A stretch of DNA of 64,000 nucleotides from Psammoneis japonica (Eukaryota), in assembly GCA_008632985.1 (NCBI GenBank), contig QPGO01000062.1, forward strand, positions 186,001-250,000, given 5' to 3'. Each line of letters begins with the position of its first letter. Position 1 is the first letter of the stretch. Position numbers and translations under genes: made by a program. The notes below the pieces were generated by a model. That model worked only from the letters and a program-made list of their open reading frames with translations, did not search any database and was not told the DNA's origin. Below are positions 1-56,375 of the stretch, piece after piece.

Positions 1-1045
1 GCCTGATTGGCGTTGGCGAAGGAGGGGAGCACACAGAGCAGAGAGTGAGAAAAAGCGCTGCCTTGGCAAAGGATGTGTCAAGTGCACTGTCTTCCACAAA
101 CAGGATGGGCTGAAGACTGCTCTGTCACAACCACCTCTGACTCCCCTCTTCTGGAGGCATGCCGCCTTTGCTTCTTTGTCCCTTGTGTCGACGTCGTCCA
201 GCGCCAAGCACAGCTGGCATGGTGCTGTCTCAGGAGCCTGACTTGAGCATCAGCATTCTCCATGGAAGGCTGCATTGGCTGTGTCAAAGACATTCTCAGA
301 GGGCTGGCTTGCTCAGTTGTTAGAGCTTTTGCAGGTTTTTCTGAAATGGCGACATTGCAGGCAGCGGGAACAGCAGCACCAGGGATGCTGGGCTTGGACC
401 TTCACTTGAGGCCAGCACTGGCAACCCACCTCATGGCTGCACCCAGTGCCATTTTCAGTTTGAGCAAGAACACTCTGCAGATGTTTGTTTGAACAATTTG
501 GGAAGCAGCAGGCACACCCAGATTGTTGTCCATGATGAGCGATCGCTTGTTGTGACTGTGGAGACAACACCCAGCACCCCCTCCTCCAGACAAGCAATCT
601 CAGCTTGATCATCACATTGGGAGAATCAGGCAATTTTCATTTTCCAACCAATGCCTGCTGTGCACATGGCTTCAGGATGCAGAACAGGATAGTTGGGTGC
701 AGAGCCCCCATTGTTGCCAGCTGCAGCTGTCAAGAGGAGGGTGCCATTGTCACAGACTTTCTTGTGCTGTTTCAGAATGATTTGTTGTGATCCTCTCCAC
801 CAAGACTCACACTTTTGACATTGGCTCTCGCGCCCACCATTCACAGCACAGCTTTCAAGAGCATCAAGCATGCAAGACTCAGCTCCTTCCCCCCTTTTCC
901 AATGTGGAATTTGAGTGGTTTCACATTGCCCATGACACCAGCAATGCCTTGTGATTCTTGCCACCAATGGCGTCTGTTGAGACAGACAGGAAAAAGAACA
1001 GCCTTCTTGCTCTTTGAAAAGGTGCAGAGTCCAACAGAGGCATTC
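1..1045. repeat. TA/CG-depleted degenerate block 1 (probable decayed repeat or TE; continues beyond window start)
   Basis: Only about 2 TA dinucleotides seen in approx. 1 kb; few CG; TG/CA-rich. Overlapping Tyr-poor, Cys/His-rich ORFs in all frames. TA reappears abruptly at about 1048. Confidence 0.7.
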
Positions 1046-1190
1046 CGTACAAAGCCAAATTATTTTTATTAAACATTCAAAAGCTGCAATCCAGCAGTGC
1101 ACACAAGCAGAGAAACAGTCCATACAAAAATCAAAGTTTACTTTATACACTGTACAACATAGCTCATTTATTCATTCCCGTTACTCAATC

Positions 1191-2232
1191 TCACACATGC
1201 CACGCAAACCCAATCTCATCCAATCGCTCCTTGCGTTTCTTGGAAAGCTTGTCTTGTCGTGACCGTTGCGTACTCGCCCAGTACCCCAGCTTTTCATCCT
1301 CCTTACATTGCGACGGGACGCGGCAGTGTCCGTGCACCTTCTTGAATTTTTCAAGTCGTTCAAACATGCTATCCCACGTTTCTCGCAAACACCATGCAAA
1401 TCCAATACTCTCCAACAAGTCTCGTCGTTCTTGTGATAGCGAATCTCGTGATTGACGTTGGGTTTGGACCCAATTTCCAAGACGAGGATCAGGTTTGTAT
1501 TTGGTCGGGACACAACAATCACCATGGATCGCCTTGTAGTGTTGCAACCGAGCAAACATGACGTTCCAAATCGACTTGTCTCGGACACACCACTCGAAAC
1601 CAGCAGCCACGAGGCGTTCAATACGCGTGGGTGAGAGGGTATGCTTTTTAAAGTTGCGTCTCTGGCGTTCGACCCAACGACCTACGTACGAGGTGTTCAA
1701 TACACGCGTGAATGGGTGAGGAGAGGGTATGATTTTCAGAATTGCGTCCTTGTCTTTCGTCTCCACTCAACGACCTACCTAGCTTGGGGTCTGGCTTGTA
1801 TCGGTGTGGAACAAGACAATCGCCGTGCTTGAGCTTGTATTGGAGCAAGCGTTGATACATGGCGTTCCATGTCTCGTATGGTTGAGGACGTGGCTTTTGA
1901 TCTTGTTGTTCTTGTGGATCTTGTTGTTGCTTCGGACGGGTTGACGCTGTCGCAGAGAGCTGCGTGAGATGTAAAAGTCGTTCCGTATCCAGAGGCAACG
2001 GTGGTGTGGGAAGAGCAATAGCCGTAGCGAGTGTTGGTAGTGATGGAGCTAAAGTCGACAATACGGGAGACGTCGCGTACGGCCATGTCAACAGAGACGG
2101 CGTCGTTGTCGGTTGTTGAAGAAGAACAGCAGTAGCCGCTGCGGCAACGTCTTGCTGTTGTTGTTGTTGCCGTTGACGAAGAATCTCAAGAGCCAACTGA
2201 GAATACAATTGCTGATTTGGCGGTCCATTCAT
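1191..2232 (-). CDS. Helicase-associated (HA) domain repeat protein, paralog 1; exons 2232-1779 and 1681-1191
   Basis: Three HA repeats (W..MY.RL..YK..HGDC.VP..Y..DP.LG.WV..QR...L...GF.W) after a Q/P-rich N-terminus. A 97-nt GTAGGT...GTAG intron (1778-1682) restores KLG|RWVERQR. Confidence 0.88.
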
Positions 2233-2818: not shown

Positions 2819-4019
2819 TCATCCAACCAATTTCTTTTCATTGTCACGAGCATTCCAAACAAACCCAATGTCATCGAGTCTCATCTTTCTCCGAATCGAC
2901 AACTTTTGTTGCCGCGACCGCTGGACATTGACCCACGCGGCCAGCTTGACATTTTCACTACACGTCACGTTACAATGGCCGTGCTTTTCTTTGTACTGAC
3001 AAAGCTGTTCAAACATGTTGTTCCATGTTTCACGAAGACCCCAGACAAAGCCAATCGAATCGAGTCGTTCCCGGCGTTCGTCACTGAGCGTGTCTCGTGC
3101 TTGACGTTGGGTCTGGACCCAATTTCCCAATTTAGGATCCAATGGGTATTTGGTCGGCACTCGACAATCACCGTGGAGTGCCTTGTACTGTTCAAGGAGA
3201 CAAAACATGGTATCCCACGCGTCCTTGTCGCGCACGCACCATTCAAATCCGAGAGCTTGCAAACTCTTGAAACGAAGAGAAGACATGCAATTCTTTTTGC
3301 GATTGCGTCTCTGACGTTCGACCCAACGGCCCAATTTGGGATCAGCCTTGTAGCGATGTGGAACCAAGCAATTGCCGTGCTCTTTTTGGTATTGAACCTG
3401 CGAGATGATTGTGTATCGAGAGGTGAGTAAAAGAAAAGTACGGGATCAAGAGCTGTGTAGAGTATGAACTTACCAATCTCTGATACATGTCATACCACGA
3501 TTCGTGTAGATAGCCTCTTCCTTTTTCGTGATTTTGAATGGTATGCATCTCGGAGGATGGCATGATACCCGGCTGCTGCTGCAGCTCTTCAGAAGGAGGA
3601 GTCGAGGCTACCGATTGCGGGAGGGAAGAGGCGGTTGCTGCAAGATTGAGCCGTTCCGCGCCGAGAACTCTGGGTGTTTGTGCTGGTAAAACCCCTGGAA
3701 ATGCGAGTAGTGGTGGTGGTGGCGGTGGTTGAGAGGTAGCAAGGGCAAGTGTTGGAGACAAGGAGGCAAGTGTCGGTGTTGTCGCCAGAGCCGCCAACGG
3801 AGCATACGGTGCTAGTACAACAGGCGGCGGCGGTGGTGGTTGTTGGAGAGCAGAACCCAGTACAGACAGAGCCGCAAGATCCTGCTGCTCCTTTTGTCGG
3901 CGAAGGATCCGTAGGGCTAGAATTCGCTTTCTAGCTAGTTCAGCTTCGGAACCCTGCATGAGATTGTCGATTCCTTGAAAGTTCGGAGAAACTATTGGGG
4001 CAGGGCCATCAATGGCCAT
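2819..4019 (-). CDS. Helicase-associated (HA) domain repeat protein, paralog 2; exons 4019-3474 and 3397-2819
   Basis: Three HA repeats closely similar to paralog 1. A GTAAGT...TCGCAG intron (3473-3398) joins YQRL|VQYQKEHGNCLVP. Confidence 0.9.
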
Positions 4020-4869: not shown

Positions 4870-6930
4870 CAGCAAATGGGTTGACAATCAAGCAGTGATC
4901 GGGTTTGCCAACATTTCCAAAAATGTGACAACAAAAGTTGCATCACTCAACAACCAACAACATCTCAAGAGATGGAAACAAGAAAAGTGACTCCTCTTTG
5001 CACTTGAATTAAAAGAGACAACAATGCACAACAAACATTTGAGAAGGACAAGAAGCTCTTGAATGCATGGAACCAGAAGAGAGTCAATGAATCGCTCTTG
5101 TTTTGAACCTCTTGACCTGTTCTGTCCATGATGGTGGTTGGCTGAAAGGTTGGTGGTGGTTTTTTTGTGTGACTTGCAGCTTGAGGCATGTTGATGCATG
5201 AACACATGGCCCATGTGTGGTGTCACCTTTGGAAAGTGCCACTTGTGGAGCTTGGGTGGACAACTCTCTGTGCTCAAGCTTTGTCCGCCAAATGCTCCAT
5301 CAAAGTCCAGATGCTGCCACATCCCACCCGACCATTGACACAAAACAGTTCTTGCAAAATGTTGTTGCCTGTTTCCCTCTTCCTCTGCAGAGCAGCCCTC
5401 TTGGTGACAGTGCTGCCCACATGCCAGAATGTGCTCAAGAATGCTTTCCATTTTGCCAGCAAAGATGCCCAACGCGGGGCTGTGTGGGCTCGAATCTCTC
5501 TCAAGACAAGCTGACATTTGTGCCTGGCACTGGCGGCAATGCTCAGCCCTCCTTCCTGTTTGACTTCCCAGGAGTGTGCCCAGATCTCCTGCGTGCTGAG
5601 TGGCTCAACCACAAGAGTCGCTGTCTTTGTCAGTTTTGTCAGCAGGATGTGCCAAGGCTGCTCTGGCCATGTGTGCGCAAGGACAGCTGCGACAGCGCTT
5701 TCTGCTGTCAGCAAAGAGTGTGAGCTGGCTGGACTGCCCAACCCCACACTTCACAGCTCCTTGGCAGTCACTCCAAATCAAGTGCCAACTTGGGGTCAAC
5801 CGCACCTGGCTGGTTGCAATGCAAAGACAGCTGTGGCAGCACTTTGTGACAACAAAGAGAGTGCGAGCTGGCTGGGCTCCCAACCCCACACTTCACAGCC
5901 CCTCAGCACTGGCTCCCAATCAAATGCCAACTTGGGGCCAATGGCTGTGAAGCCATCATTGCAAATCCCTGTGCCTGCCCCCTCACACAGCTTTGCACAG
6001 GGTCAACATGTGTGGCCTTTGCAAGATGGGCCCTGGCTGGCTGCTGGCTCCTCAGCCACACGGCTTGCACAACAAGCCACCAAAACACAGAGCACTGTGG
6101 GGTGAGTGCAGCACAGCCCAAACAAGCACACCATGCTGAGATCACCCAGAGTTGGCTGCTGTCCTGGGGCTCCATTCAAAGCTGAGCTGGGCTGCTTGGC
6201 TCCTTGGTGTGCAGCACATGCTTGGCATCACATTCTTGTTGCCAAGCAGCCGCATGGCATGTGCCCACCATTTGTGCCTGCAACAGCGACCCCAGCCACA
6301 AAGAAGCCAACAAAAAGTTGAACCTGGTTTTGTGGTTGAAGAGTGAAGAAACTGTGAGTGAAGTTTGGTTCAAGATTTGTTGGCAATGCCAAGTGGGCAA
6401 CCAAAGAGAGGCGCCAAAAATGGCTGTTCTTGCTCATTTCTCAAGAGGAGCTTGCGCTCATGATGCAGGGTCTGAAGCAAGCACCAGCCAAGACAACAGT
6501 TTTTTTCTCTCTGCCCCACTTAAAACACAGCCTTTGAGTCAATGTGGTGCTCCTTCAACAACTCACGCACACTGGGAAGAGCAGCTGGAGCCAGGGCAGC
6601 TGGCCTGGCAGGGCTTGGCTGACACCCAAGCTGGGATGCTCAGCCTGGTGGCACACACTCAGTGCCACATTGTCACCCTCCTGCAACTGCAATGTGCCCC
6701 ACTCTTTGCACCTGCAGCAACCACCCTGGATCAAAAGAAGCCAGTGCAACTCTGGCCATGGTTGCATGGTCAATTGTGTGTGTGTGTTCAACGGTTGATT
6801 CCCCTCTTTTTTTCTCTTTTCCTTTAACCGGCCACGAACATGAAAAAATTGCCGGAAGTCGCAGTTCGCAATGTCAAGGACGCTTTGACGTGGCACGATC
6901 AGCACGATCCGTTCGATTCAATCGCCAGAC
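4870..6930. repeat. TA/CG-depleted degenerate block 2 (probable decayed repeat or TE)
   Basis: Residual TA is nearly all in TTAA; strong TG/CA excess; six-frame ORFs lacking Tyr. Contains an internal direct repeat. Confidence 0.7.
5682..5941. repeat. Diverged direct repeat, period about 144 bp (5682-5799 and 5826-5941)
   Basis: Shared gacagctg...gagctggctgg...cccaaccccacacttcacagc...tgccaacttgggg; differences include CG/TG and CG/CA. Confidence 0.85.
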
Positions 6931-8335
6931 CTTATTTCTCCGTGAAGGTTTCTCCGAAATGTATCTTTTCACGGAAGACGACCAGACGAAGTGGGATGCG
7001 CGAAAGATATTTCCACGTGTCTCCTACCGCCCCCCGAGGAAGTCATACGAACATGTCATTGCTCTTTACGTGCTACAGACAAGTTCGAAATACTCTGTTT
7101 TGTCTTTTACTGTAGGTCCGTTACTCAAGGTGGTACGGGTACAAAAGTGTGCCAGATTCTACGCACGTGGAGCTTAGCATGTTTTCTACACAAATCGCCA
7201 AAGTCGGCTCGCCAACTTGAACCCTCTCCAGGACGATGGAAACTTTGACATTTCACATGACAAAGTGTTTGGACTACTTAATTACACTCCCCTCGACTTG
7301 TTTAAATGAAGAGAAGTTACAAGTTTCCGTGGGTTTCTCGTTTTGCATGGCTCTTTAAAACTCGAACGTCGCGATGCATGAAGAATGATTAAGCAGAGGG
7401 CGCACCACAGTTCTCGGCCCGTTCATTTTCTACGTGGCCTGGCACAACCCAAATCTGTTTAGATTCAGTGCATTTCGCCCTGCAGAACAGTTTTTGGGAG
7501 TGTTTTCTGCCTCGCGACGCAAAATGACACGCAAAACAACACGGCGGACAATGGCATTTCGCCGATTTCAAAAGTGCAGTTGTTTCTGAAGCACTTTGCA
7601 GTGTGCTCTCAATGGAGTGTCACACGTCATGGCATGAGGCGTGTGACAAGCTCAAGAGCACACAGGTTCATGTGGGTGGCTGATGGTGAAATTTTGAGCT
7701 GAAGATTGGTGTTGACACAGCTGATTTTGTTGCATCAAAACGCAACTTGTGCATCACCATTCATTCTGTGCATTTCGTTGAGTGCTCGTGCGTTCACATT
7801 CTTTCAACTTGCACACATGTTGTCTTTCCTCATTGTTGTTTTGTTCTGCAGGGTCTCCCTTGCCATGAGACATCCCTGAGAGAGAAGTGCTTCCTTTGAA
7901 TGTCGCTTCTACATCTGGGATGCCAACAATCTGGGTCTGACCGTCTGCCATGATCTGGGCATTTCTTGACTTTAATGCCAGATTGTTGTCAACTTACAAG
8001 CCAATTCTCTCCTCAAATGTAACATGAGAACTGCGCAAGTTTGCAAGCCTCCAAAACCCCAATTGCTTCCCACTTTCAAGTGTGGTCATTCCTTTCACAC
8101 AATGCAGACCTGCGCCCCAATTGACATTTGGGGTTTCTCGTTCTTTTAACACAAATGTTGCTGCACATGATCCACCCTCCTTTTCTGCCAACTCGTCCTG
8201 CATTTTGTCTCTTTGCTGTGCCGTTTTCAAATCCAATTCCCAATTGCCACACGTTGTTGCATCCAAACCGCATTGCACAATGTTTTTTTTTTAATTTTCA
8301 CTCATCTAGATTTTGTTGTTTGTTTCAAATTACGT

Positions 8336-9469
8336 TCACACACCAGTTTGGTTGGTGGCCATTGCGCCATTTGCTGCCGCTCCGTTGCCTGCAGCCACCG
8401 CCTGCAATGGCAGGTCCTCTCCCATTGGCGCCGCCCATCCTTCCTCTCTCTCCTTTCTTTTTTCCTCTCTTTTGCATTTCTTGTTTTCCTCCTGAGACAA
8501 GTTTGTCTTCTCCCGCCTTCTCTCCTTGAACCATGCACCGAATCCCTGGTTGTTCTCTCTGTCTTTCACCACCCACTGACGTGGATCATTGTGCTTCTTG
8601 ATCCCCTCCTTGCTCCATCCTTGGTTCCTCTTTGCCGACTCCCCCGCTGCCTGTGCTGTGCACTTTGCAGGAGCAGCATCTTTCACAGTTGGCTTTCTTC
8701 TCCTTGCAACATTTTCTTCCTTTTCCAATTTCTCTGCTGTGTCCTGCACCTTGTTGCAGCAGTTCAAGCACACTGGCAGAGCAAACGCCTCCGACGAAAC
8801 TGAAAGCCATTCCTGAAGCATGTCGGTTGTGCTTCTGCCAAACTGCACTTGTCCCACCACCGTCAGCACCACAGTTTCCAAGAACCACACGTGTGTGTCC
8901 TTGTCATTTCTTCCCTTTGTCAAGTCTTTGCAATCCACCAGCGATCCCTCTAAAGCAGCAACTGCACAGATGATGTCAAAGGAAGAGACACTCATCCCGT
9001 CAGACAATCGCCTCTGGCACAATCACCGGCACGCACACATCTGCTTGCCTGTCATTCTCCTCCCAATGTTGTCCTGCACATTGTTCCTCTTTCGGTTGAG
9101 TTTGGTCCTGAACACCTCTTTGCATTCATCCCAGAACTTCTCCGGTGAAGACGCCATGCTCCTCAACTCCTGCAGAACCAATTTCATGCAATCTCCTCCC
9201 ACAGCGAGTTCATGATCGAAGATTGTGAACTTGCGACATGGCCAAACACTCTCATTGACAACCTTGGTCAACATCGATGCCATCAATTTCTTGCCCACCG
9301 CAGGTGCACGATCCAACACAAGACATCCCTCTGTGGGAGTCACCACCGAACTTGAATCGCCACCTGCATGCTGGAATCTGTTCAGCTCCCCATGTTCGTT
9401 TCTTTGTGCATGCAGCAAGGCCGCCACCGCAGGACTCATGGTGACTTCATGTGACACCACACAGATCAA
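8336..9469 (-). pseudogene. Decayed repeat-associated protein with S[D/S]EAFAL...KYT...GWSxEG..YN.L...V..DR motifs; intron 9048-8962
   Basis: ORFs 9023-9469 and 8336-9022 join in frame through an 87-nt intron with a GCAAGC donor and TGCAG acceptor. From memory, the motif set resembles a multicopy diatom hypothetical family found in DNA-transposon-like repeats; this was not verified by search. Confidence 0.6.
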
Positions 9470-10162
9470 TCCAATGATTGTGTCAGTTCATCAGCAACTC
9501 TTTGTCATGTCCTTTCTCAATCTCACTTGCCGCTGGAAGTTGCACTTCCTCCCTCCGCTGCTCCTGTGAGAACCGCATCCTCCATCATTTTTTACCTTCC
9601 CAATGGCTTCCTCTTGTTTGGAACTTCCGTCCTTTCCTGTCGCTTTGTGAAAGGTCAGTTGCAAAAAGAGTGCACTTTTGCATGTGATTTTCTTGGTTTT
9701 GTTGTTGCTCGTGTGTCCTCTCTTGATTCAAACAGGTCTTTGTGTCATTTTTGAGTGCTCATCCCCAACCCCATGTTTGCATTTCTGTCAACGTTTCACT
9801 GTTTTGAATTGTGCACCTTTGTCAGCCAATCCAACACACCAATGAAGATTGCCACATCATTTGGGTCAATGCCAAACAATGTGTCACATCTGCTTGTGTT
9901 AATGCGTGCATTGCGCTTCCTTCTGGATGCAACATCTGCCTCATTTTGTGTGCCAAGTCGTGTCAAACCTCCCATTTGTTGTCCCTGTCTTAACAGGTCA
10001 TTCCCTCTACTTCCCCGACACCACATTTGTCCATTTGCTCTCTCTGTTGCCCAAATTTTCCAATCCACTTTAATGTCCACTGAAGTGTGTCATTGTCACT
10101 GAGATGTGGTTGTCGTGAGTCGTTCCCATTGTGGGAACACGTGTTCCCTCCACTGCAATCAC

Positions 10163-10864
10163 ATGCCGCCAATTGATGGTCAAATTGGTCATTTTGCTGG
10201 TGGTGGTGTGGAATCACACGGTGGTGCGGCAAGCTTTGCCTTCTCCGCCAAGGTCATTTGTAACCCCGCTCTCTTTGCGGCACAAATTCGAAGCCGTTTT
10301 AATTTCCTCGGCATTGGTGGTGGTGTTGGCGGTTTTGCGATTGCCTGTCGTCTGCTTGTTCCTGCCTGCAATGCCTGCAGCATCGAGTTCCACCGTCCCC
10401 GTCATGATCTTGGCTCTCAGTGGTGCAATGCCATGTGGCACAACAATGCCAGTCGCTTTCCGACCCTGATCAATCAGGACTTCCTCTCCGAAGATGATGC
10501 TGTGCGTCAGTTGCACCGTCTGAACAACTTAAAGATTTTCTTCAACAACTGCAATGGGCGAATGCTTTTTGACAACAACGCGACACAGAACCAACTCGAG
10601 GAGATGCTGTCCAACGAGTGTCCTGAAGGCACTGTTGTCATTTCATTGGACATGATGTTTTGTGTTGATGCGCACAAATGGAGGGATGGAGCATTCTTTG
10701 TTCCTGCCCATCCAGACGATCTGTCATGGGGAGGCGGTGTCGACAGGCACCCACTTCACAAGCACACCAAGAAAAGAGACGATGCCGTGGAGACCAGGCA
10801 TTCCACTGGGAACAACCTGGGGTCTGACATCAAACGTAAATTCAAGCCTGCCAAAAGTGGGTGA
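10163..10864 (+). pseudogene. Decayed DOT1-like class I SAM-dependent methyltransferase
   Basis: Motifs in DOT1 order: ES[H<-Y]G, FL[G]IGGGVG (motif I), SIE, QDFL, IFFNN, PEGTVVISLD, LSW...PL[H]K[H]TK. No Tyr in more than 230 aa. Confidence 0.65.
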
Positions 10865-11019
10865 CTTTGCAATTCCACTTTGTTTGCAATGTAACTGTCA
10901 TCCATGCAAGCAATGCATTGTCAATTGGCCCTTTACACATGCCTGCTTTGTGCCCACATTAACTTGCCACTTCGCTGGTTTTGTGTTCCAACACACACTT
11001 GTTCACACGCTTGCTGTGT

Positions 11020-12240: not shown

Positions 12241-12372
12241 TCTCTGAAAATGCCTGTTCTGCCAAATCAAATGGTGCCTGGTCTTTTTCTTTCAGTGGAA
12301 CAGACCCAATCCAGTGAAAGTCCACACCCATCGCTTTCCAACAAAAATGGCTTTCTCGCCAAACAGCTGTTG

Positions 12373-12507
12373 CCAACGGCAGCCCATCTGTTCGTGTGCA
12401 CCACGGGTGTTTTTTTTGTAAATGGTCCCGTGTGATGTTTTGGCAACGGCAGTCTGTCTGTCGGGTGCACCACAGACGTTTTTTTGTAAACAGTCACGTG
12501 TGATGTG
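12373..12507. repeat. Approx. 70-bp tandem duplication
   Basis: caacggcag...tgcaccac...ttttttgtaaa..gtc.cgtgtgatgt occurs twice; includes CA<->TG swaps. Confidence 0.85.
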
Positions 12508-13184
12508 ATCTTCGTCGATCCTGTTCACTGAATGATCTCATTGAATGGGTCATCCCAGCCATCTCAAAAGCACAGAAAACAATTTTGTTGCTCACAATCC
12601 TGCCAGTGATGATGTGAGACATTTTCACATCACCACAGCGGCAGACACAAAGCAAAAGCTTCTGTCCACCGCACATTCCGCACCACAAACAAACTGTTGC
12701 TTTTTTGGCAATGCACGTGTCTGTCAACAGAGCAATTTGGTGTCACTTTTTTATTGTTACAACCATTTCTTAACAAAGTGATTCCACATCACTTTTCTGT
12801 TGTCAAACATGTGTGTTGACAGAAGAATTTGGGCATCAGTTTTTTGTCAATGCACACATCTGGCAATTGACACCTTTGGTGCCACTTTTTTACTCACACA
12901 CTTGGTGCTAGCCTGCACAGCATCGTGACATGAGGTGCATCTCCCACAGCAAACCACATTCTCCCGAATCTTGTCCAAGTTGCTGATCAACTCATGTTGA
13001 GCAGCAAACAGATGTCGTTTGGGTGACTCTGTTTCTTGTGTTCCGCAGCCTTGTCATTCCCTTTGCAAAACAAAAAAAAGAATCACACCCAATCCCTTGC
13101 CTGTCAGGCCACATTGCCGAAATGGAACCAACAAATCTCTTTTCCGTCCAATGCATTGCACTTCTCTCCCAACGACATTCCACC

Positions 13185-34955: not shown

Positions 34956-35004
<49 letters not shown>

Positions 35005-35015: not shown

Positions 35016-35074
<59 letters not shown>
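34956..35074. repeat. A48 - CGTACACGTGGACC - T57 fold-back
   Basis: Read directly from the sequence; the spacer is a near-palindrome centred on CACGTG. Confidence 0.9.
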
Positions 35075-35077
<3 letters not shown>

Positions 35078-43997: not shown

Positions 43998-45936
43998 CTA
44001 GTGAAGTCCCAAATCATTGACATAACACTTGATGGAGTGGTTTCTGTACGGCTGGCGAAGCTTGTGCAAAGCCCGAACTTCAATTTGTCGTATGCGCTCT
44101 CGTGTGACAGAGAAGCGCTTTCCAATTTGTTCAAGAGTTTTCGACTTGCCGTCATCCAATCCATAACGCATACGAATGACGGCTTGCTCCCTACTATTAA
44201 GCGTGCAAAGGAGCCGCGAAATGTCGTCCTTGAGCATTTGGTACGTGGCTTCATCGATAGGCTTTTGTTCGGGGTCGCTCATGATATCCCCAAGGGTTAT
44301 TGCCTGGCCGCCACCGGCACCACCACGAGCTCCGCCGGTGCTGGCCGACGACCCCTTTGTTTTTGAAGTTTGAATCTGATGCTCCATGGAAATAGCATGC
44401 TGGGTGTTTCGCCTCAAGAAATCAATCTTTTTGACATCCAAATTGGTGCGTTCACTCAGCTCGTCAATCGTTGGTTCTCGTCCAAGTTCCTGTTTCAAAT
44501 CACGTTCATGCCTATTCAACGAATTCAATTGATCGTGAATGTGTACCGGGAGTCGAATCGTGCGTCCTTGATCTGCTATACCCCGGAGAATGCTTTGCTT
44601 GATCCACCAGGTGGCATATGTCGAGAACCGGAAGCCGAGTTCGGGATCAAACCTTTCACAAGCCTTGGTAAGGCCCAAAATACCCTCCTGGGAGACGTCC
44701 TGGAAACTCAAGCCGCGGTTCTGGTACCTCTTGGCAATGGACACCACCAAACGAATGTTGGACTCAGTCAAGGCAGCCTTGGCTCGGAGAGAACGGCGGA
44801 TCTGCTTCTTAAGGTCGGCAACCGTCATGCCAGGTTTCACTGCTTCAGCCCACTCTGCATATGTTGGAGGCCTGAAATTGAACCGGATACGACAGCCATA
44901 AGGTAAGTGTAATCTGACATGAATCAAATTCACCCTCCTTCTTAGCTCTCAACATGCACTCACCTGATTAACTTGGTCTCCAACTCTTCACGCGTTTTTT
45001 CCCACTTGAGTAGTATTTGAATTTCTCTTGCCAAAATAATTTCTTCGTTCTTGTTCAAAAGTTCATGGTCACACATGGTTTTGATGTAGGATCTAATCGA
45101 ATCGTATCCCGTCTCCTTGACAGAAGCACGCACTCGTCGGCGAGGCTGCTCTTGTTTCAATTGTTCCTTATTGGTTGCACGTGGTGGTGGAGTTTTGGTT
45201 GTTTCTTCCGCACTTTTCGATAGTTTCTCTTTTTCTTGATCAAACGTCGAGGCAAAATCATTAAACACATTTCCGACCAAGTGATTGTTATTATTCTCTA
45301 GACTTTTCTGCAAGTCGTTCAAAACAGGTGCCACACCACCGGATGATTCATCTTTCTCCGCTGTAGCAATCGTTGCAAAAATGTCTGGATTTTCCACTAG
45401 ACTACTTTTCAAAAATACAGGTCTTCTAGTCGAACTTCTACCAGCAAATCCATGACATGCAGGAAGAGCCACTAGAAAGAGAGAGGAGCAAAACGATGTG
45501 TGAGATGATGTATCATGACACATACTTGCGGAATGTGTGAGTACGTGGCAATCATCAGGTTATGGGATATTGTGTACGGCAATCTGCGTAGCCATAGTAC
45601 TGTCCGTACGTCACCCGTCACATAAGTGATGGGTTGTGCTTCAGCGAGCACCATGACAATGGCTGGCGAACAACCAGCGCATCCATCACCGACACGTTCG
45701 CCCATAAGCCACCCATACGATCACGGTTGAGCCTCATAAGTGTCTTTCTATCAACGAAAGATCGAAAAACCTCTCCCCTAGTCGAATTGAATGCTTCATA
45801 CCGCCATCTCACATCGCACACCAAAAATTGTATCTTTCGACTTGTGCTTACCAACAAGAAGAGCCATTGCTGCGGTCACTCCTGCCGCTCTTCTCACAAG
45901 TGGAGTCGATTGCCTTGTTCTCGCAACCGTATCCAT
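43998..45936 (-). CDS. Nucleus-encoded plastid RNA polymerase sigma-70 factor; introns 45851-45472 and 44963-44872
   Basis: Signal peptide ending CHG-F; region 1.2 [40 protein letters not shown]; region 4 [20 protein letters not shown]. Confidence 0.93.
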
Positions 45937-46887: not shown

Positions 46888-48605
46888 TTACAGAGACTCG
46901 GCACGAGCTTTGACAGCCTTTTCAAATTTCTCAAGTGCTTCATTCACTTGCTCCTCATTGACAATCAGTGGCGGAACAAATCGAACTACAGATGGACCGG
47001 CAGGGACCAAAAGCAATTGCTCCTTCATGGCATCACCCACCAACTCTCCCGCGGTGCACTGAGCGTCGTCATTGACCACCACACCAACAAGCAGTCCCCA
47101 TCCACGAACCTCTCCCAAAATCGTTGGGTACTTCTCCGCAAGTGCTTCCAATCCACTGCGCAATTGTCTAGCACGGGCATTGACATTTTCAAAGAAACCG
47201 GGTTCCGACATGGCCTTGGCGACCGCCAATCCAGCCGAGCACGCCAAGGGATTGCCACCATATGTAGAGGCGTGATCACCGGGTCCAAACACATCGGCAG
47301 CCTTGCCCCGAGCCATCATGGCACCAATCGGTACACCACCGCCCAAGGCCTTGGCAGACGTAAAGACATCGGGTTCCACGCCTCCCAAATTTTCATATCC
47401 CCAGAGTTTACCGGTGCGTCCCATTCCGACTTGAACTTCGTCACACACGAGCAAGGCATTGTTGTCATCACACAATTGACGAGCCTTATTGAAAAATTCG
47501 GGCGTGCCCGGTACGATGCCACCCTCACCCTGAAGCGCTTCCATCATGATGGCTGCCAGACCACGACCGGAGTCTAGCACTTCTTGGACCTTTTTCTCGA
47601 GTGCCTCGGGATCGTTGTAGGGGACATATTCAAAACCTTGAACCATTTCACCCTTGTATCCAAATCCCTTTTGGTACTTGGGCTGACCCGTGGCTGTAAT
47701 GGTGGCCAAGGAGCGACCGTGGAAGGAGTTTACAGCAGTAATGATAACTGGTGCCTGATGGGTAAGAAAATTTGAGAAAACGCATGAGAATACCATAGAT
47801 AAAAAAGAAATGGAGATTCAAATCATCTCCGACATCATCTACAGCAATATCAACAACATAGTATACACACCTCAACACCGTTATTATACGCATTTCGACG
47901 AGCCAATTTGATTGCGGCTTCGTTGGCTTCCGCACCCGAATTGCAAAAGAAGACCTTGTCGGCCACGGAGTTTTCGCAAAGCCACTTGGCCAGCTTGGCC
48001 TGAGCCGGAATGTAGTAGAGATTGGAAACGTGATGCACGGTAGACATTTGATCGATAATGGCATTGGTAAGATCTGGATGAGCATGGCCCAAGGCGCACG
48101 TGGCAATTCCAGAAACAAAGTCCAAGTACTCCTTGCCGTCGGTCGTGTACAACTTGCAGCCGTCGCCCTTTTCAATTGTAAGTGGATAGCGGCTGTAATA
48201 TTGAAGATTCGCATGGAACAAGAGCATAGTTATGAGTACAAAGGCTGAAACAGAGAAATCGTGCAAAAGATACTTTTTTCTCAGGAACAGATGAGAACTT
48301 TGAACGAGAATTGTCATTCTGAGCTTTCACTGAAACGCTCATCAGACGTGCTAAAGGTGCAGCGTGTAGCCAAGCACTTTTGACGATCACACAAAAGTCA
48401 CTTACCCATATGTCGTCTGCACATTTTCATCGTACATGCCTTGAATGTCGCTGCTACTGTCAGTGACAACCGGGGCAACAAGTTCTGTTTCAGCCACGGA
48501 TGCCTTTAGCGAAGAAGAAGCGGCCGAGCTGCGCGTACTAATGGCAAACGCATCCACAGACGCCGCCATGGCGAGAGCACATGCTAGAGACTTGCGAGAA
48601 AACAT
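46888..48605 (-). CDS. argD: Plastid-targeted acetylornithine aminotransferase; introns 48405-48193 and 47870-47755
   Basis: VDA-F signal cleavage; YLDFVSGIA, FFCNSGAEANEAAIKLAR, SFHGRS, CDEVQVGMGRTG, SAKALGGG, HASTYGGNPL. Confidence 0.95.
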
Positions 48606-48969
48606 TGGTGCAAAATTGGGTCACTTGCAACTACAACGACTTTTGTTGAGAACTGAGAAAATGAGAAGAAAGAATGCAACGCAAAAAAATCTTTTGGGTG
48701 GTGATGCGAGGAAAGATACGAAAGTGTGCATTTTCAAAAGCTTTCGTACTGAAAATACGTAGAAACCTACGGTGTTCTTTCCAGCTTCCGGCAAATCTAC
48801 TGACAGACAACAGACCATGCGTTTTCGTTCGCACGACTGACCTGAGTCATGCGCTTGGTTGCGTTCTTGGTCGTTCCAAAGGTGACATCGTAAGGGCTAA
48901 AATTCCAATCATCAGCTTCTACATAGAAAGGGCTGTGTGACGCCAATCAACTGAAAATTGTTAAAACAT

Positions 48970-51900
48970 CCACTGGCCGCTGGAGAAAGTGTCTTTCATC
49001 CCACACAACCATCGGCTCTCACATGACACGGGGCTCTCCCAGCACTCACCACACTGCCAGCTCAAAGCTGGGAAGCACCAGTCTGCAATGTTTCAAACCA
49101 AAAAAACACACACTTCTCTTTGAGAGTTTTGGCAATGGCACAATCTTCAAGATGGTGCTGGCATGTCTTCTTGTCTCACCACACATGCCCAGCTGCCAGA
49201 CACCAGACAATGTGCCCAATCTTTTGCATTTCCTGATGCAAAAAAGACGCATCATGCAAACTCCTTGGGGCTGTTGGGATGAATGTTTGCTGCATGGAGA
49301 TGCCATGGCCCCCACCTGTGAGACAAGGCATGGTGGAGTGCAGCAAATGATGAGAGCTGCAGCACTGCGATGTGTGCAAGCGCAGACAGCTGTGCCGCTC
49401 AAGGGTGCTCTCTCTCTGACCTTGAACAGATTTGTCCAAAGGCCAGCCTGGCGCTCCTTTGCAGATTGTGCTGATCTGAGCCTTTTGCCCTCCATTGACA
49501 CTCCACCCCAATGGCTGCATTTAAACCCCCCTCTTTTCCTCTTTTCCCTCACACCTCCGATCTCTCCCAGCTTCTCCATCCAACCTGTCTTTGCTGCTCT
49601 GGGGCTGCTTCCTTGCTCTTCATGACAAAAATGTCCTCACCCGGTGACTGTTGGCTTCAGTCATTGCTCTCACCACCAGTTGTTTTCAGCGGCCAAACTC
49701 ATGACTCATGCCATCTCATGGTGTTCATTCGTCATCCACCATCTCAAACAAAGAAACATGCTGCACAATGCAGCCATGCTTGCTGTGAAGAACTTCCTTG
49801 TTGAGATGTTTGCAAGCTGCTCAACTCATGCATGCATTCCACCTGTTTGCTGTTGTTGATCATGACCAAGTCAACAACAAGAAAGAGAGCCTGTGCAGTG
49901 CCCTTTTTGCTCTTTTTTCTTGTTTTGTGCTCTCATTGTTGACAACCACAAGCAGAAAGGCAAGTCCAACAATGCATTTCAAGCATCAAAATTTGATGAA
50001 GTTGCAAAGGCATGTTCACATGGCCCCTTGTTGTCCAGTTGCTCACACTTGCCATCCCACCCTGTGGACATGGAAAGCAGCCAGCTTGATTCTTTTTTTG
50101 AGCTGTGTGCCAAGTGTGCTGCCTCAAGTTGACAAAGTTGCAGGAGCAGTGCCAGGGAGAATGTGCAAAGGCATCTGACCTCCTGGAACATGAAAATGAC
50201 ATGTTGAAACTCGGGCCAAAGTTTTCGCACTTGTTGTGCCAAGCATTTGCTTTTGCAAGTGAGCGTGCCCCACAAAAAAAGCAAAGCCACCACTTGTGCA
50301 ATGCTGTGAAGGATCCCTTGACATTTTTGTTCTTGTTCAACATGTCTGCAAGGAAGCAACACACAACTCCTGAGTGCCATCTGGGCCCAGCATGCAGCAG
50401 GCCTGGGCAGTGTCCCATTGTCTGACAAGATGTGGGCAGTTGTTTGCAAGATTTGTCTGTTGAGCCCACATCTGCAAGAAAATGTGCTGTTGTTTCTTCA
50501 TTTGCTGCTTTGTCTTCATTTGTTCACAAAAGTGCACATGCTGAATGATGTGCAGACCACATGGCTCATGTCTGTGAGCATGTCTTCATGTCTGCGAGTG
50601 TGTCCTCAGCTGTTGAATGTTTTGTGTCATTCAGCTGTGCACCACGGGTCATCGACATTGCTGTTGTTTGGTTTTTGGTTGTCACAACAGCTGAGCAGCA
50701 TCTCATTGTTGCATCAGAGCAAAAAAAAAAACATTGTTTCATTGCTGCATTGCCAGCTGTGACATTCATGTGCTGCTCAAATCATCATCTCATGCAAGAC
50801 ATCTCCTCCTCCAATGGCTGCCACACACGGCAACTGTGTGGGGAGGAAGAAGCTTCTGTGGCAGCCCAGGCTGCACTGGCTGCTCAAGTGTCTCAAAGAT
50901 TTGTGCATGCACGGGCTTTCAAGGCACAAATGAGGATGGCATGCACTGCTGCATTGATGACTGCAACAAAGATGGCACCCCTGCTCCTCCTCTGACCATC
51001 ACTGCCACAGCATCAAGAAATGCCCCCACATTTGCTGAACCCTGATCTTTTCAAATGAAGCACACAGCCCATCTGCTGGGAAACATGTGCCATGAAGCTG
51101 GAGCTGAACAGGACATTGGTTTGACAGAGAGTTGATTGTGCTGTGCAGCAACAATCCAGCATCAAACATGGAGAATGAGAAATGTTGGAAACACACAAAT
51201 TTGGAAAAAACTGGTCAGCTGCAAGATCGTCAAAACAAGCACGTCATTGTGCTTGCTCACATTGTCAGTTTGAATGTCAAGAACATTGTTGGATGGACAA
51301 GGCAGCTCATGCACTGCAAATGGGTGGAGCAAAGGAGACATTCTTGCTGCAATGACTTGCTGTGCATGCTCCCAAATTGGCCAGCAAATGACTGTGTCCC
51401 CATGAGCAGCTTGCCAAGTGCTCACAACAAAGAGGCTGCCAGTGCCAGATGAAAATCCGGGCATGTCTCTGGCGGCTGACATTGGAGAGCCATGGCAACA
51501 AGCCATTTCCAAAGATGCTCCCCTTGTTGCTGGAGCTGAAGCCAAAGAGGCCTGTGGCACCAACCACACATGACCCAGCTGCGTGCTGGGCTGGAAGCAA
51601 GTGTGAAAGGCGTGGTGCATGCAATGAGCAGGGGACCTTGAGCTTGCTGTCTCCATGTGCAGCCACCACAGTCCAACCCTGGCTGGAGGCTTTGTGGGTG
51701 AAAAGGAGCCCTCAATTGCTGGACAGCTGAGAAATCCAAGGTGCAAGAAACCGCAGCTGTTCAAGGTCTGACCAAAGTGGCAAGAAGATTTGCCACCTGC
51801 AAGCCACATGTGCCCATCTTCAAAGTGTCCCTGCATTGTGAGTGGCAGCATGTCCAATGAGTTGTTCTGGGGATTGTGATGACAAGTCTTTTGCCAGTGC

Positions 51901-53055
51901 CAAAGATGAGGTCAAGCACCAGCTCTCCTCCCAGCTCTAACTGGGCAAACTTTGGCGAGTGATGACTGTCCCAAGAATGGCTTTGTCTGTCCTCTCCCAA
52001 CCAATTTTGCAGGGCTGTTCATGTCCCTCATCCAATGGAGTCAGCAAAGCATGGCTTCAAAGCAAGTGCTCCCATGAAATCACAACCACTTCGTGGCCAT
52101 TCTCAACTCACCTCAACTGTCCACAAGGGCTTGACTCGAGAAGTTGAAGAAGCAGGAAATGGCAAAAAAAGGAAAGCCAACTTGAACAAAAAAGTGCTCA
52201 AGTTGATCCTCTGTTTTATGCCTGAGAAGATGGCCAGCAACTTGTTGTGACAAGGCTGCAACCAAGCCTTGCTTTGCATGCAACAAATGCCAGTCACATC
52301 AATCACAGCCACCCCTGGACCCATCTGCCAACGGTCAACCCAGCAGCTTGCCAAGCACGCATCTGTGAACTCCTCCAAGTCAAGAGATGGAGGCTGCAGA
52401 GACATTCTGGTCCAAGGCTGCTGGTGGTGGAAGAATGCACACTAGATGCCACATTTGATGTCAGAAAGCCACCAACACAGGTGCCAAGTTTTGCCTTTCC
52501 ATGATGCCAGAACAAGTCTCCCATCAGATGAAAAAATGAGAAATGATGCAAGAGAACCTCCAGCCATGCCACGAGCAATGCACTGCATCTTTTCATGGCT
52601 GTCATGGCACTGTGCAAAAGATTGTTTGGCAACGAAGCCCAAGCAACCCAGCTGATGACAGCAGCACAGCTTTTGCAAACAGGTGGCACAAAAGCCGAAG
52701 TGTGCACATTTTTTGCACAATGAGAATGAGTGTTGTGACAGAGAGGTGCCTCTGCTTGAGAGGCTCAAGAACAAGAATCCCCTCCTCCAAGACTTTTGCC
52801 AGACACCTCACTGGAAAGATGGCTCTGGTCTGTCCACCCTGTGCAAGCACCAAACCTCTTTAAGATGATGGTGTCTGTGTGTTGAGACTCAATGCAGACA
52901 TGTTGCCAACCATGGCACACTTTGCATTGAGCCCTCAAAGCTGCTGCATGACTGTTTTTGAATCCCCCACTTTCTTCTGCTTCTGTTCATCTGTTGTTGT
53001 TCTCTCATTGGTGCACCCACCATGCTGAAAACTTGCTGAGAGGACCTGCAACATT
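48970..53055. repeat. TA/CG-depleted degenerate block 4
   Basis: Only a handful of TA in about 4 kb; CG rare; TG/CA-rich. Segment 49229-49403 is homologous to 56318-56475. Confidence 0.75.
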
Positions 53056-53127
53056 GAACATAGTAAGAAAACTCCCTCTCGTCTTTTGAGTAGCCCTTCT
53101 CTGCTGTGGTATCGCTGGACTTATACA

Positions 53128-54291
53128 ATGTCTTTTGATAACCCTTCGACTGAAGCGCTGGTTGAGGCCATTCTTAGCAACTCCTTGTTGCTCGTGGAGA
53201 ATTACCTCAATCGTGGGTGCGATCCGAACTCTACTTCGTCGCTGATATGGCCTCTTCTGGGTGATATCGTAGGAGTTGATTATCTTGCACATGAAGTTGT
53301 TCCCGAAGACACCAAGATGGCGATACAGAACCGTGCAGCCAATCATCATCCTCCTACAGCTCTCCATGCGGCCGTGATCAACTGTTATCACCGAAGTAAG
53401 CAATACAAGGATCACCAATCTACGGCTCGTGCCATTCTTCGTACGCTCTTGCGTCACGGAGCCGATCCTTCCGTGGTTGCCACCAATCTCGTTTTGACCA
53501 ACATTGAAGACAACGTATATAAACTTTTTGACGCTTCCGACAAGACGCCTTGCGGTCTCGCGCTCTTTCTAAAACGTTTCCCGTTTCGCATTTGGAAGGA
53601 TGAGACGCATTCCATGATGGACAAGGTGATTGAAATCCTGCAAGGTCGAGCGTTATTGCCTACTTCTATTCAGCAACCGCAGACACAAATTCTCAAAGCC
53701 ACGGCGGACATGTACAAGAAACTCTTGTTTTCGGCAAATTACAGTGATGTACACTTTCTTTGCAGTGACGGAGTCGAGCTACACGCTCATCGCTGTATTC
53801 TCGCCGCGGCATCGGAATACTTTGACCGATCCTTTCAAGGCCCATGGGTGGAGAATAACGACAATGGAAAGTGGTCGACGGCCCATTCTTCCCAAATCAT
53901 GAAGGCTGTGCTGGCCTTTATTTACAAGGGTGACGTTGCGGGTCATGGCTTGCTCGAGCTCGAGCCACTCGAGTTGTTTTCGGTTGCCGCCGAGTACGAT
54001 ATCCCTAGTCTCATCAAGTTGGCCGAAGACCGGTGTATTCAAAGCATCAAGTGCGACAATGTCAAGGACATTCTCCAAGAGGCACACTTGCATGGCAATG
54101 TGAATATCAAGCGAGCTTGCTTTTTGTTTGTTCAAACCAAGGCGGCTCGTGTCTTGACGGATCCAGAAATGATGGACTTGGCCATGGAGGATCCACAACT
54201 CTGGAAGGAGCTCACCACGGCGATTGCTCCGTCTAGTAGTGGCGACAAGGAAAACCGTGGTCCCAACCGAAAACGCGCTCGTACGCGATAA
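53128..54291 (+). CDS. BTB/POZ-domain protein with ankyrin-like N-terminus
   Basis: TALHAAV...LLRHGADP (ankyrin-like); YSDVHFLCSDGVELHAHRCILAAASEYFDRSF...VLAFIY (BTB) and BACK-like helices. Confidence 0.88.
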   Translation: MSFDNPSTEALVEAILSNSLLLVENYLNRGCDPNSTSSLIWPLLGDIVGVDYLAHEVVPEDTKMAIQNRAANHHPPTALHAAVINCYHRSKQYKDHQSTARAILRTLLRHGADPSVVATNLVLTNIEDNVYKLFDASDKTPCGLALFLKRFPFRIWKDETHSMMDKVIEILQGRALLPTSIQQPQTQILKATADMYKKLLFSANYSDVHFLCSDGVELHAHRCILAAASEYFDRSFQGPWVENNDNGKWSTAHSSQIMKAVLAFIYKGDVAGHGLLELEPLELFSVAAEYDIPSLIKLAEDRCIQSIKCDNVKDILQEAHLHGNVNIKRACFLFVQTKAARVLTDPEMMDLAMEDPQLWKELTTAIAPSSSGDKENRGPNRKRARTR

Positions 54292-54669
54292 GAGAGACTT
54301 TTCGCACAAATACCATTTTGGAAAAAGGCGACACTCCGCAAGATATATATGCACCTGTGCTTGTGTTGTGGCATTTGGTTGCTCATTGCATATATCAAGC
54401 ATTTGTACTTCACGTGTCGTGTGCTGTGTTGGACACTCGCCGACAATATAAAGTAGTAACTTGATTACCGTTCCACGATATCTACATGCTACTAGAGAGT
54501 GTTGAGGAGTTCAAAAGCATTCCAGTGAGAGCCACAAGAAAGTATAGCGGAGTTGGCATCAGCAGTGTTATACCTACTGGCAGTAGATGCAGTAATCGGG
54601 TCCAATTTGGATTCTGTAAACCCATTAGAACTCGAAGGAGACGTCACAGATGCAATAGAAAGCATGGGA

Positions 54670-56375
54670 GCTGTCTCGCACGATCGCCGGGGCGTGGAGC
54701 ATCTTGTGACCGCATCGATTCTTCGAATGAGGGAGGTCGACCAGGCCCTTTTTGAATCGCATGTGCTTGACAATCTTGACCTGCGATGTCTCAAGATCTT
54801 TCCAAGTGTCATTCTTGGTGGCAGCAGACAAACAACCAAAGAAGTTGCCCTTCTTGCAGTTGGGGCGCAACTTGTTGCGGCGGCGACCGGGTTCTTGGAC
54901 CCAAACACAACAACCAATTGCAATGTTCTCAGCAGTCTTGGCAGCAGGGGATGCATCTTGATCCACAGATGCAACAGTCACACCAGAATCCCAGGTGGAT
55001 GTGTGGCAGCAGTGTCCACAGCAGTGGTGGGTGGTGGAGGCCCCAATGATGAACTGTGCAGCACTGCAACAAGATCACCTGCAAGCACCCAAGAGTTTTG
55101 TTTCAGCCAAATTGCACACATCTTTGGAAGTGACAGTCACGTTGGTGCCTCCAGAATGTGTGCTGACAGCCACAGTGGGTGATGCAGTTTTGAGAAGCAG
55201 CCAAACACAACAAGCAGCTTGAAGCACTCCATGCGTTCCTGCAGGTGCACCATCATCAGAGGAGCGGAGGGCTTTTTACCCTTGTCTGTGGACTTGTTGT
55301 CTTTGTTGAACACATCAGCAGTGATGTCATCCCAGTTCTCATGCACTGGTTGGGGTCCTGGTCAGAAGTGAAGGTGTGGCAGTTTCCAGCAGGAACAAAA
55401 ATTGCATCTTCTCCAGCATCGATTGCCTTGGTCATTGCTGCTTTCTGGAGAGTGCAGATCAACTCAGATGGGCATTGTAGATTCCAGGGGCATGGGACAT
55501 GGAGGGCTGCTTTGTCCATCATGGGTTCACCATGCAGTTATTGGTGGTGGTCACAGCAAGTGGCATGATCAGCCATTTAAAGAGTTGCTGGCACAGAATC
55601 TCAACAACATCAACATCAAGACTTGGCTGCACAGAGTCATCTAGAATGACTGTGTCCAGAGTTTTTTCCAAGTGCTGGCTGTTCAGGCAAGCACGTGCAT
55701 CTTTGTGAGCAGGGTGAAGCCCAAATTCAAAGATTGTGGTGGGCTTTGTCATCATCAAATTGACAGCTTTGGTTGACTTGGACATTGCGGGTGCATGTGA
55801 AAGATGCTGCACAGAGCTCTGGTGTGTGCCCTGCAGTGGCCCTGCAATCACAGTTGGCAGGAAAATGCGTGAGATGAAGACTGAGTTTTCTCAAAAATTG
55901 AGCTCCGCAGCTCAAATGCTGCTGGCATGGGTGCTCTGATGGCAGAAAATGGTGCAAGAGCACTCACAACCCAACAGACAATGGTTTGCAAGAACAGTGT
56001 GACACATGCCAGCAGGGCTGGGACAGCAACAACAACTTGGTGCTGGCCAAAAAGAAAGCGCATGTCTGCCAGTTGTTTTTTGGGGTGCCAAGCCTCTGGC
56101 ACTCGGACCTGCGACAAACTTGAGCCTTCTCTGTGTCCTGCTGCAAGTGCAAGGTTCACTTCCTCAAGCATTTGTGCTGGCAACCTCAGAGCCTTTTCAG
56201 CATTGTTTCATTTTTCCAGCTTTGTTGAGACAGGAACGCCTCGATCAGCGTGACTGGACCGGACTGCGCCACAGCATTGGCACGCATTGTCCTGTTGTCA
56301 GAAACCAAGCTCTCCCGTTTCCTGATGCCAGGAAGACGCGTCATGCAAACTCCTTGGGACCGTTGGGGTGAATGT
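54670..56375. repeat. TA/CG-depleted degenerate block 5
   Basis: TA nearly absent; contains a copia fragment and a copy of the block-4 repeat at its right edge. Confidence 0.72.
54730..54920 (-). mobile_element. Ty1/copia polyprotein fragment (post-integrase SH3-like region)
   Basis: GCCVWVQEPGRRRNKLRPNCKKGNFFGCL...WKDLETSQVKIVKHMRFKKG matches the copia consensus FGC.V.V...R.KL......G.FLGY.......YD..T..V.....V.F.E; conserved GY appears as GC. Confidence 0.75.

Follow-up and report, generated by a model that had tools for sequence, protein, structure and literature searches.

Five sharply bounded blocks within a 64,000-nucleotide stretch of the Psammoneis japonica genome (contig QPGO01000062.1; hereafter the window, meaning the whole stretch that was analysed, in whose own coordinates all positions are given) have lost nearly all of their TA dinucleotides to a TpA-specific A:T to G:C process. 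It acted in place in the chromosome and on both strands, preferred TA followed by a pyrimidine (TAY), and was accompanied by an independent decay of CpG. The blocks are probably transposon relics, and the process is probably of the same kind as the TpA hypermutation recently reported for integrated viral DNA in the chlorarachniophyte Bigelowiella natans.

Five blocks almost free of TA

A sliding scan of observed/expected dinucleotide ratios (o/e) in 500-bp windows gave TA values of 0.00-0.15 in the blocks against about 0.3-1.0 elsewhere, and TG/CA values of 1.5-2.1 against 0.9-1.4. A two-state hidden Markov model (HMM) run on pyrimidine-purine steps yielded exactly five segments, each contiguous and 1.0-7.7 kb long, and thereby recovered the five sharply bounded TA-poor blocks of the original prediction, within whose limits the TA of the following list were counted.

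Block 1, 1-1045 (HMM 4-1042), running past the left end of the window: 2 TA against 42.6 expected; TA o/e 0.03, CG o/e 0.22
Block 2, 4870-6930 (HMM core 4870-6790), with a TA-poor, CG-rich right edge at 6791-6930: 3 TA; TA o/e 0.03, CG o/e 0.24
Block 3, 7470-15250 (HMM 7569-15227), the largest, its CpG about half decayed: 44 TA against 314 expected; TA o/e 0.09, CG o/e 0.53
Left edge of block 3, 7470-7566: TA-free and CG-rich
Block 4, 48967-53060 (also the HMM limits), the most fully purged: 5 TA against 168 expected; TA o/e 0.02, CG o/e 0.14, TG o/e 2.04
Block 5, 54670-56378 (HMM 54760-56378), minus strand, probably a 3'-truncated Copia-type element: 5 TA; TA o/e 0.05, CG o/e 0.33
Left edge of block 5, 54670-54760: TA-free and CG-rich

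Outside the blocks the corresponding ratios are 0.60 for TA and 0.98 for CG. TG and CA, whose abundance in the blocks had also been predicted, stand at 1.57-2.04 against 1.15 outside. Block GC content is 0.49-0.52, TA makes up 0.12-0.6% of block dinucleotides, and the Poisson probabilities of the block TA counts, given the density outside, run from 3e-16 to 1e-81. Two finer claims also held: the interval 8401-8950 lacks TA, as does all sequence between 8331 and 8951, and the sole TA of 8401-9590 sits at 8951. The wider limits that had been proposed at 6930, 7470 and 54670 correspond to the edges listed above, which are TA-free (TA-poor at 6791-6930) yet CG-rich.

Mutation toward TG and CA

Compared with the rest of the window, the blocks are short of 37.3 TA and 33.3 CG per 1000 dinucleotides and carry 72.6 more TG+CA. 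Because the combined losses equal the gain, the pattern was made by mutation toward TG/CA. The two products are balanced (1806 TG against 1811 CA). TpA is self-complementary, so sequence cannot separate T to C on one strand from A to G on the other.

Duplicated segments inside the blocks record the same direction of change.

11441-11553 and 11778-11890, plus strand: direct duplicate in block 3, 89.4% identical in bases and 99.1% in purine/pyrimidine code
5675-5800 and 5819-5942, and 6211-6339 and 6648-6773: internal duplicates of block 2

The block 3 copies differ by 11 transitions and 1 transversion and include 4 aligned TG:CA pairs in 113 columns; such a pair is expected where an ancestral TA or CG has been resolved on opposite strands in the two copies. 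Over five in-block pairs we counted 92 transitions, 33 transversions, 20 aligned TG:CA pairs and 13 CG:TG/CA differences in 561 columns, against 94 transitions, 84 transversions and a single TG:CA pair in 699 columns for five pairs outside the blocks. One in-block pair was detected only in purine/pyrimidine code, a code that favours transitions; without it, 9 TG:CA pairs in 435 columns still stand against 1 in 699 (P = 0.001). The paralogous segments 1318-1684 and 2967-3333, in the region of an HA-domain protein, are 69% identical with 57 transitions to 66 transversions and keep normal TA, indicating that old gene duplicates escape the purge.

Agreement with an independent sequencing run

The same sequence over blocks 4 and 5 was found in X1, a separate DNA run available as Logan contigs with a word depth of about 60. 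One 12,202-bp X1 contig spans 41013-53050, flanking genes included, with 11 other letters; block 4 assembles there as unique sequence, and block 5 is also covered. With roughly one difference from the window per kb, X1 is more than a copy of the same assembly. A base-calling or assembly artefact, the former of which the original prediction had named as a risk, is excluded. Among the differences listed, all 13 inside blocks 4 and 5 are transitions, against 13 of 27 outside. Four of these 13 exchange TA with TG/CA and three exchange CG with TG/CA, and two fall on one of the only 10 TAs in these blocks (P = 9e-4).

X1 contigs break at 53049-53062 and at 54889-54969, both ends of the stretch of normal composition between blocks 4 and 5. 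One of them matches the window up to 53062 and then switches to a different, TA-containing sequence, a pattern suggestive of structural variation, or of a further copy, at block 4's right edge.

Identity of the blocks

Two features suggest that blocks 4 and 5 are mobile DNA, a Copia integrase remnant in block 5 and a segment resembling a long terminal repeat (LTR) that is common to blocks 4 and 5.

54724-54987, minus strand: what is left of a Copia integrase's C-terminal SH3-like domain (Pfam PF25597, E = 2.6e-5)
49216-49351, plus strand: LTR-like segment in block 4, 81.5% identical to 56305-56435 (91.9% in purine/pyrimidine code)
56305-56435, plus strand: LTR-like segment at the outer end of block 5, crossing the composition boundary at about 56379
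11023-11475, minus strand: open reading frame resembling PhyH/2-oxoglutarate-Fe(II) oxygenases, a weak remnant in block 3 (PF05721, E = 2.8e-4; 21.6 bits, below the curated cut-off of 22)

The Pfam scan covered 82 block open reading frames of at least 90 aa together with the six read-through frames (stops as X) of blocks 3, 4 and 5. It gave no significant domain in blocks 1-4, including all six read-through frames of block 4, and found no gag, protease, integrase core, reverse transcriptase or RNase H in the read-through frames of block 5. The integrase remnant has 75 phmmer hits at E<=1e-3, with 45-55% identity; a word-based protein search with the block 5 reading frame gave 0 hits. When the long polyproteins among the hits were compared with the window by tblastn, they aligned solely at 54724-54987, and since they align nowhere else, the block 5 element is truncated and otherwise erased.

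The LTR-like match between blocks 5 and 4 is limited to one 135-bp segment; no complete LTR pair was found, nor did a purine/pyrimidine-coded self-alignment of the window reveal long LTR pairs. Over 131 aligned columns the two copies show 24 differences, 6 of which are transversions, and the part of 56305-56435 that lies outside block 5 retains TA and CG where the copy in block 4 shows TG/CA. Matches to a primer-binding-site motif number 18 in the window against 19.3 expected; one of them, with 1 mismatch, lies inside block 5 (55933-55944, minus strand) and is only suggestive. Taken together, we think it probable that the blocks are old, dead mobile-element DNA and that at least block 5 derives from a truncated Copia-type retrotransposon.

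The loss of TAA and TAG has left long open stretches in all six frames of the blocks. An open frame of 444 aa in block 3 (12995-14326, minus strand) has two finger-like motifs of the form CxxC...HxxxxC and a proline-rich tail, with a sub-threshold Pfam C2H2 match; either a gene relic or the loss of stops itself may explain it.

Purged and unpurged relatives

The protein relatives of the integrase remnant carry the same signature. With one giant protein set aside, 74 ordinary phmmer hits remain; tyrosine is scarce in 14, and 11 of these have none at all in 98-251 aa. Opposite 34 tyrosines of their Tyr-normal partners, the Tyr-poor proteins have Cys 13 times, His 11, Phe 6 and Tyr 2, against Tyr 234, Phe 52 and His 14 of 365 in control homologues at the same positions (P = 3e-19, with control Cys set at an upper bound of 5). 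TAY to TGY gives Cys and TAY to CAY gives His, so both strands were affected.

At the nucleotide level we collected 80 metagenome loci of the block 5 Copia clade, with TA o/e from 0.15 to 0.81; no nucleotide match was found between these loci and the window. Fifty-six align at >=80% identity to one of them, L039, and 41 remained after removal of near-duplicates, among which changes were polarised by a 70% majority. In seven TA-depleted copies, 15/74 to 26/66 (20-39%) of the ancestral TA sites carry derived transitions; the corresponding share is 2.3-5.3% for other A/T sites and 5-14% for CG sites. At TA sites, 28 of the 34 other copies stay below 10%. This is the context-specific spectrum that the original prediction had proposed as a check, and together with the mass balance, the in-block paralogues and the replacement of Tyr by Cys and His it upholds the claim of an A:T to G:C change at TpA, on either strand, in bounded transposon-like blocks. 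Rates at TA and CG sites are uncoupled in the family (34% and 7.9% in L057, 10.9% and 23.9% in L062), and in L057 and L070 the depletion ends where the element ends.

Conversions to TG (183) and CA (127) are interleaved in the seven depleted copies, with a pooled runs z of -0.36; strand clustering or processivity was not consistent among them, two copies only reaching z of -2.0 and -2.4. Pairs of near-identical depleted loci differ by TA<->TG/CA at 5 of 26 differences, too few to speak for ongoing activity. Intact family members as TA-free as the blocks, which would have refuted the original prediction, were not seen among the 80 loci, the minimum TA o/e of 0.15 belonging to a 1.5-kb fragment. 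The distant clade members L010, L012, L015, L007 and L008 have the highest TA o/e (0.77-0.81) and show no purging, which makes the process specific to copy and lineage.

These comparisons bear on whether the composition could be intrinsic, that is, selected through avoidance of UpA and CpG in element RNA, or else a product of sequencing. Joint suppression of CpG and UpA with an excess of UpG and CpA is known from RNA viruses and mRNAs (PMC3829696). However, no Tyr codons remain at a TA o/e of 0.02-0.09, the purged copies have Cys or His where relatives retain Tyr, in-block duplicates differ by TG:CA pairs, depletion varies from copy to copy within one family, and X1 agrees with the assembly. 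We regard this explanation, in either form, as extremely improbable.

Sequence context and separation from CpG decay

In the metagenomic family, strand-symmetrised conversion reaches 92/242 at TAC, 88/244 at TAT, 46/264 at TAG and 15/106 at TAA (TAY 180/486 against TAR, where R is a purine, P = 2e-11). Densities of TA-containing tetramers in the blocks relative to outside follow the same course. They are 0 for the RTAY words ATAC/GTAT, GTAC and ATAT (0 occurrences in blocks, 560 outside), 0.04 for CTAC/GTAG and ATAG/CTAT, 0.075-0.17 for ATAA/TTAT and GTAA/TTAC, 0.10 for CTAG, 0.11 for CTAA/TTAG and 0.76 for TTAA, which alone accounts for 21 of the 59 TAs surviving in the blocks. Among the TG/CA tetramers, the least enriched in the blocks are the NTGA/TCAN products (1.06-1.32), which fits an A followed by A being refractory. 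The order is TAY > TAG > TAA in both the window and the metagenomic family, and because TAA is the least preferred context, TTAA is almost immune.

The edges of the blocks separate the loss of TA from that of CpG. Together, 6791-6930, 7470-7566 and 54670-54760 hold 1 TA in 350 bp against 14.4 expected (P = 9e-6) in sequence that is rich in CG, so that TA loss outreaches CpG loss by 100-140 bp at three edges, which indicates two separate processes.

Proposed mechanism and alternatives

We propose that two processes shaped the blocks. In the first, TpA would have been converted in the chromosome to TpG or CpA (A:T to G:C), on either strand and near to completion, by a TadA/ADAT2-type adenine deaminase that would turn A into inosine in TA(Y) on both strands and may be guided to foreign DNA that has been silenced. 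The second, separate from the first, would be the usual course by which methylated CpG decays to TpG/CpA. The natural RNA target of TadA/ADAT2 enzymes is U33-A34-C35 of the tRNA anticodon loop, where U33 is universal and the triplet is UAC in tRNA-Arg, and this target fits both the TA specificity and the preference for TAC. In a review table, TadA/ADAT2 is assigned 5'ACG and ADARs 5'UAG (PMC10661471). On balance we hold this two-process account, in which the first process is of the kind measured in B. natans, to be probably correct.

Several points weigh against it. ADAT2/3 also edits anticodon loops with UAA and UAG, so the immunity of TAA is not one that the ADAT family predicts. The context ratios, though alike in order, are unequal: the window gives more than 19:8:1, and the metagenomic family, which belongs to another organism, about 3:1.3:1. 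Coding DNA makes up most of the baseline from which expected dinucleotides and TA contexts were derived, and it is not the true ancestor of the blocks. Where the window's integrase remnant departs from the >=60% consensus of its homologues, at 18 positions, only 2 TA>TG and 2 CG>TG/CA changes are callable; 5 other transitions, 3 transversions and 6 multi-step changes make up the remainder, and with so few collapses of TA and CG the relic carries much unrelated decay. The enzyme stands as a candidate, and inosine, the targeting signal and a defence function as predictions.

A different chemistry could yield the same products. A TET/JBP-type hydroxylase, active in silent chromatin, might convert T at TpA to 5-hydroxymethyluracil or a base J-like residue that mispairs with G, and the resulting T to C would be indistinguishable by sequence from A to G on the other strand. 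Both 5-hydroxymethyluracil, in the DNA of dinoflagellates, and base J, in the telomere repeats of trypanosomes, are found on a T with an A after it. However, that telomeric context, TTA, is the one least converted here (TAA/TTA), and we consider thymine modification unlikely.

It is also conceivable that no dedicated enzyme was involved, and that late replication, error-prone repair or a polymerase bias within heterochromatin favoured A:T to G:C at TpA over very long times. The blocks are indeed old, as the 24 differing columns with 6 transversions in the LTR-like pair attest, and other transitions and transversions have also built up in the integrase relic. Such slow wear sits poorly with the extreme specificity seen in the absence of RTAY from the blocks and the retention of TTAA, and with TA-site rates in the metagenomic family that are 7-15 times those of other A/T sites in some copies and at baseline in sisters of similar age. 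In B. natans, moreover, the rate is about 1000-fold over background, in some lines only (Mettrop et al., bioRxiv, 10.64898/2026.01.13.699255). We find this explanation quite unlikely.

The remaining alternative, editing of retrotransposon RNA or cDNA by an ADAR- or APOBEC-like activity before integration, draws on the RNA and cDNA stages in the life cycle of LTR retrotransposons, to which block 5 and the metagenomic family belong, and on the known editing of retroelements by deaminases in animals (PMC4866542). Among the rivals it is the one against which the sequence data argue most strongly. The strands are about equally affected (the TG and CA totals of the blocks, and the interleaved conversions of the family), the same chromosomal insertion differs at TA sites between X1 and the window, if on a small scale, and TAG, which ADARs prefer, was converted about half as often as TAY. 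The B. natans targets, furthermore, are integrated DNA viruses (10.64898/2026.01.13.699255). We judge editing before integration to be very unlikely.

Comparison with known systems

The closest parallel to the TpA process comes from B. natans, where TpA-only hypermutation of integrated DNA of nucleocytoplasmic large DNA viruses (NCLDV) and virophages has been described (Mettrop et al., bioRxiv, April 2026, 10.64898/2026.01.13.699255). According to that preprint, 231 of 302 nuclear single-nucleotide mutations in mutation-accumulation lines fell in two integrated viral regions; 230 of the 231 were A to G or T to C, all GC-biased ones lay at TpA, and the TpA rate was about 6e-7 per site per generation. 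It further reports 124 genomic clusters of TpA-poor, CpA+TpG-rich windows, enrichment of TpA-poor coding sequences in reverse transcriptase and DDE Pfam domains, and a main target that is single-copy, and proposes an ADAT2-like protein as the enzyme. All values for our blocks fall within both of the ranges used there (Rho_TpA <= 0.43, Rho_CA+TG >= 1.52).

The window shares with B. natans the A to G and T to C changes at TpA, the TpG and CpA products on either strand, the confinement to bounded regions, in the window probably also of foreign DNA, and the lasting footprint of low TpA with high CpA+TpG. Unlike the chlorarachniophyte, it has diatoms and a pedinellid as its nearest relatives, and its targets are probably transposon relics rather than viral inserts. 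Its purge is nearly saturated (0.12-0.6% TA dinucleotides against 3.3% in the B. natans NCLDV region), and CpG is co-depleted, whereas the words CpG, diatom and TTAA have 0 occurrences in the text of the preprint available to us. The TAY > TAG > TAA order and the immunity of TTAA, found here, are likewise not in its main text. The B. natans process was measured in mutation-accumulation lines, whereas that of the window is read from sequence alone. The original prediction knew of no description of the phenomenon in diatoms. We too found no description from diatoms in the literature, a search by term of Maumus 2009 (PMC2806351) bringing up no relevant passage, but TpA-only hypermutation of foreign DNA as such had already been reported, in B. 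natans.

Fungal repeat-induced point mutation (RIP) likewise represents a regional hypermutation by transitions only, which ruins mobile DNA and results in compositional blocks with sharp limits. It changes C to T mostly at CpA, creates TpA, lowers GC and makes stop codons, whereas in the window TpA is destroyed, GC stays near 0.5 and TAA and TAG are removed, leaving long open frames. RIP was accordingly rejected: its C to T at CpA, gain of TpA and drop in GC were not found, TpA being removed at a GC of 0.49-0.52. Repeat targeting, which the original prediction had put forward as 'reverse RIP', gained no support: block 4 behaves as unique sequence in X1, and the main B. natans target is reported to be single-copy. 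In diatoms, transposable elements undergo DNMT5-dependent CG methylation, and some species have a RID-related DNMT4 whose function is unknown (Hoguin et al. 2023, PMC9998398). Decay of methylated CpG accounts for the CG to TG/CA half of the block signal only; it cannot remove TpA.

Animal ADAR and APOBEC editing resembles the process in the window in that selfish nucleic acids are hypermutated by transitions of deaminase type, and ADARs share the preference for a 5' U/T. ADARs, however, favour UAG and act on double-stranded RNA, and APOBECs deaminate C, whereas here the DNA itself was altered, on either strand and where it lies in the chromosome, with a preference for TAY. ADAR-type editing was rejected as a candidate, given 46/264 at TAG against 180/486 at TAY, nearly equal TG and CA, and no clustering by strand.

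Genomic setting

The 64-kb window is gene-dense eukaryotic nuclear DNA with genes for a plastid-type sigma-70 factor, a P450, TMEM43 and HA-domain proteins, interrupted by short GT..AG introns. Its closest named protein relatives are from the diatoms Cylindrotheca (39-40% identity) and Helicotheca (34%) and from a pedinellid (57%). Three short minus-strand GT..AG introns, of 92, 116 and 108 nt (44871-44962, 47754-47869 and 60395-60502), are backed by spliced contigs of a run designated X2. A 283-N assembly gap lies at 40707-40989, into which X1 extends by 161 letters from 41013.

A TA-rich low-complexity tract (15690-16060) of CTAG, GAGA and GTAGAG units follows block 3 on the right at a distance of about 450 bp, and the 500-bp window from 15501 has a composition opposite to that of the blocks (TA o/e 1.47, TG/CA o/e 0.56). 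Between blocks 4 and 5, an open frame of 420 aa with a BTB/POZ domain (53029-54291, plus strand) is of normal composition. Pyrimidine-rich CT tracts at 34955-35075, 8410-8495 and 49500-49580 match one another only in purine/pyrimidine code, in which the tract at about 35000 is also self-complementary.

Implications

The process recorded in the window is probably of the same kind as the TpA hypermutation of B. natans, extended to a stramenopile and to retrotransposons. What is new here is the near-saturated end state, the context fingerprint and the separation from CpG methylation. In that end state TA is almost gone, false long open reading frames fill six frames and protein homology is erased, which is relevant to the annotation of genes and repeats in algal genomes. 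Two testable constraints on the enzyme follow, its context order and its independence of CpG decay, and they argue against both an ADAR-like activity and a side effect of cytosine methylation.

If the process is the same as in B. natans, TpA-directed editing of invading DNA would serve as a genome defence against both retrotransposons and viruses, in no fewer than two algal lineages that are far apart. More tentatively, it is possible that stramenopiles and rhizarians share a DNA-editing genome defence that extends across SAR (stramenopiles, alveolates and rhizarians), in which a TadA/ADAT2-type deaminase or a TpA-specific base modifier, independent of cytosine methylation, acts on silenced transposons and integrated viruses. 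Were this so, 5'-TAY would be rewritten on both strands until the invader is left without Tyr codons, TATA elements or TAA and TAG stops, and the order TAY > TAG > TAA would be the enzyme's own specificity and a handle by which it may be found.

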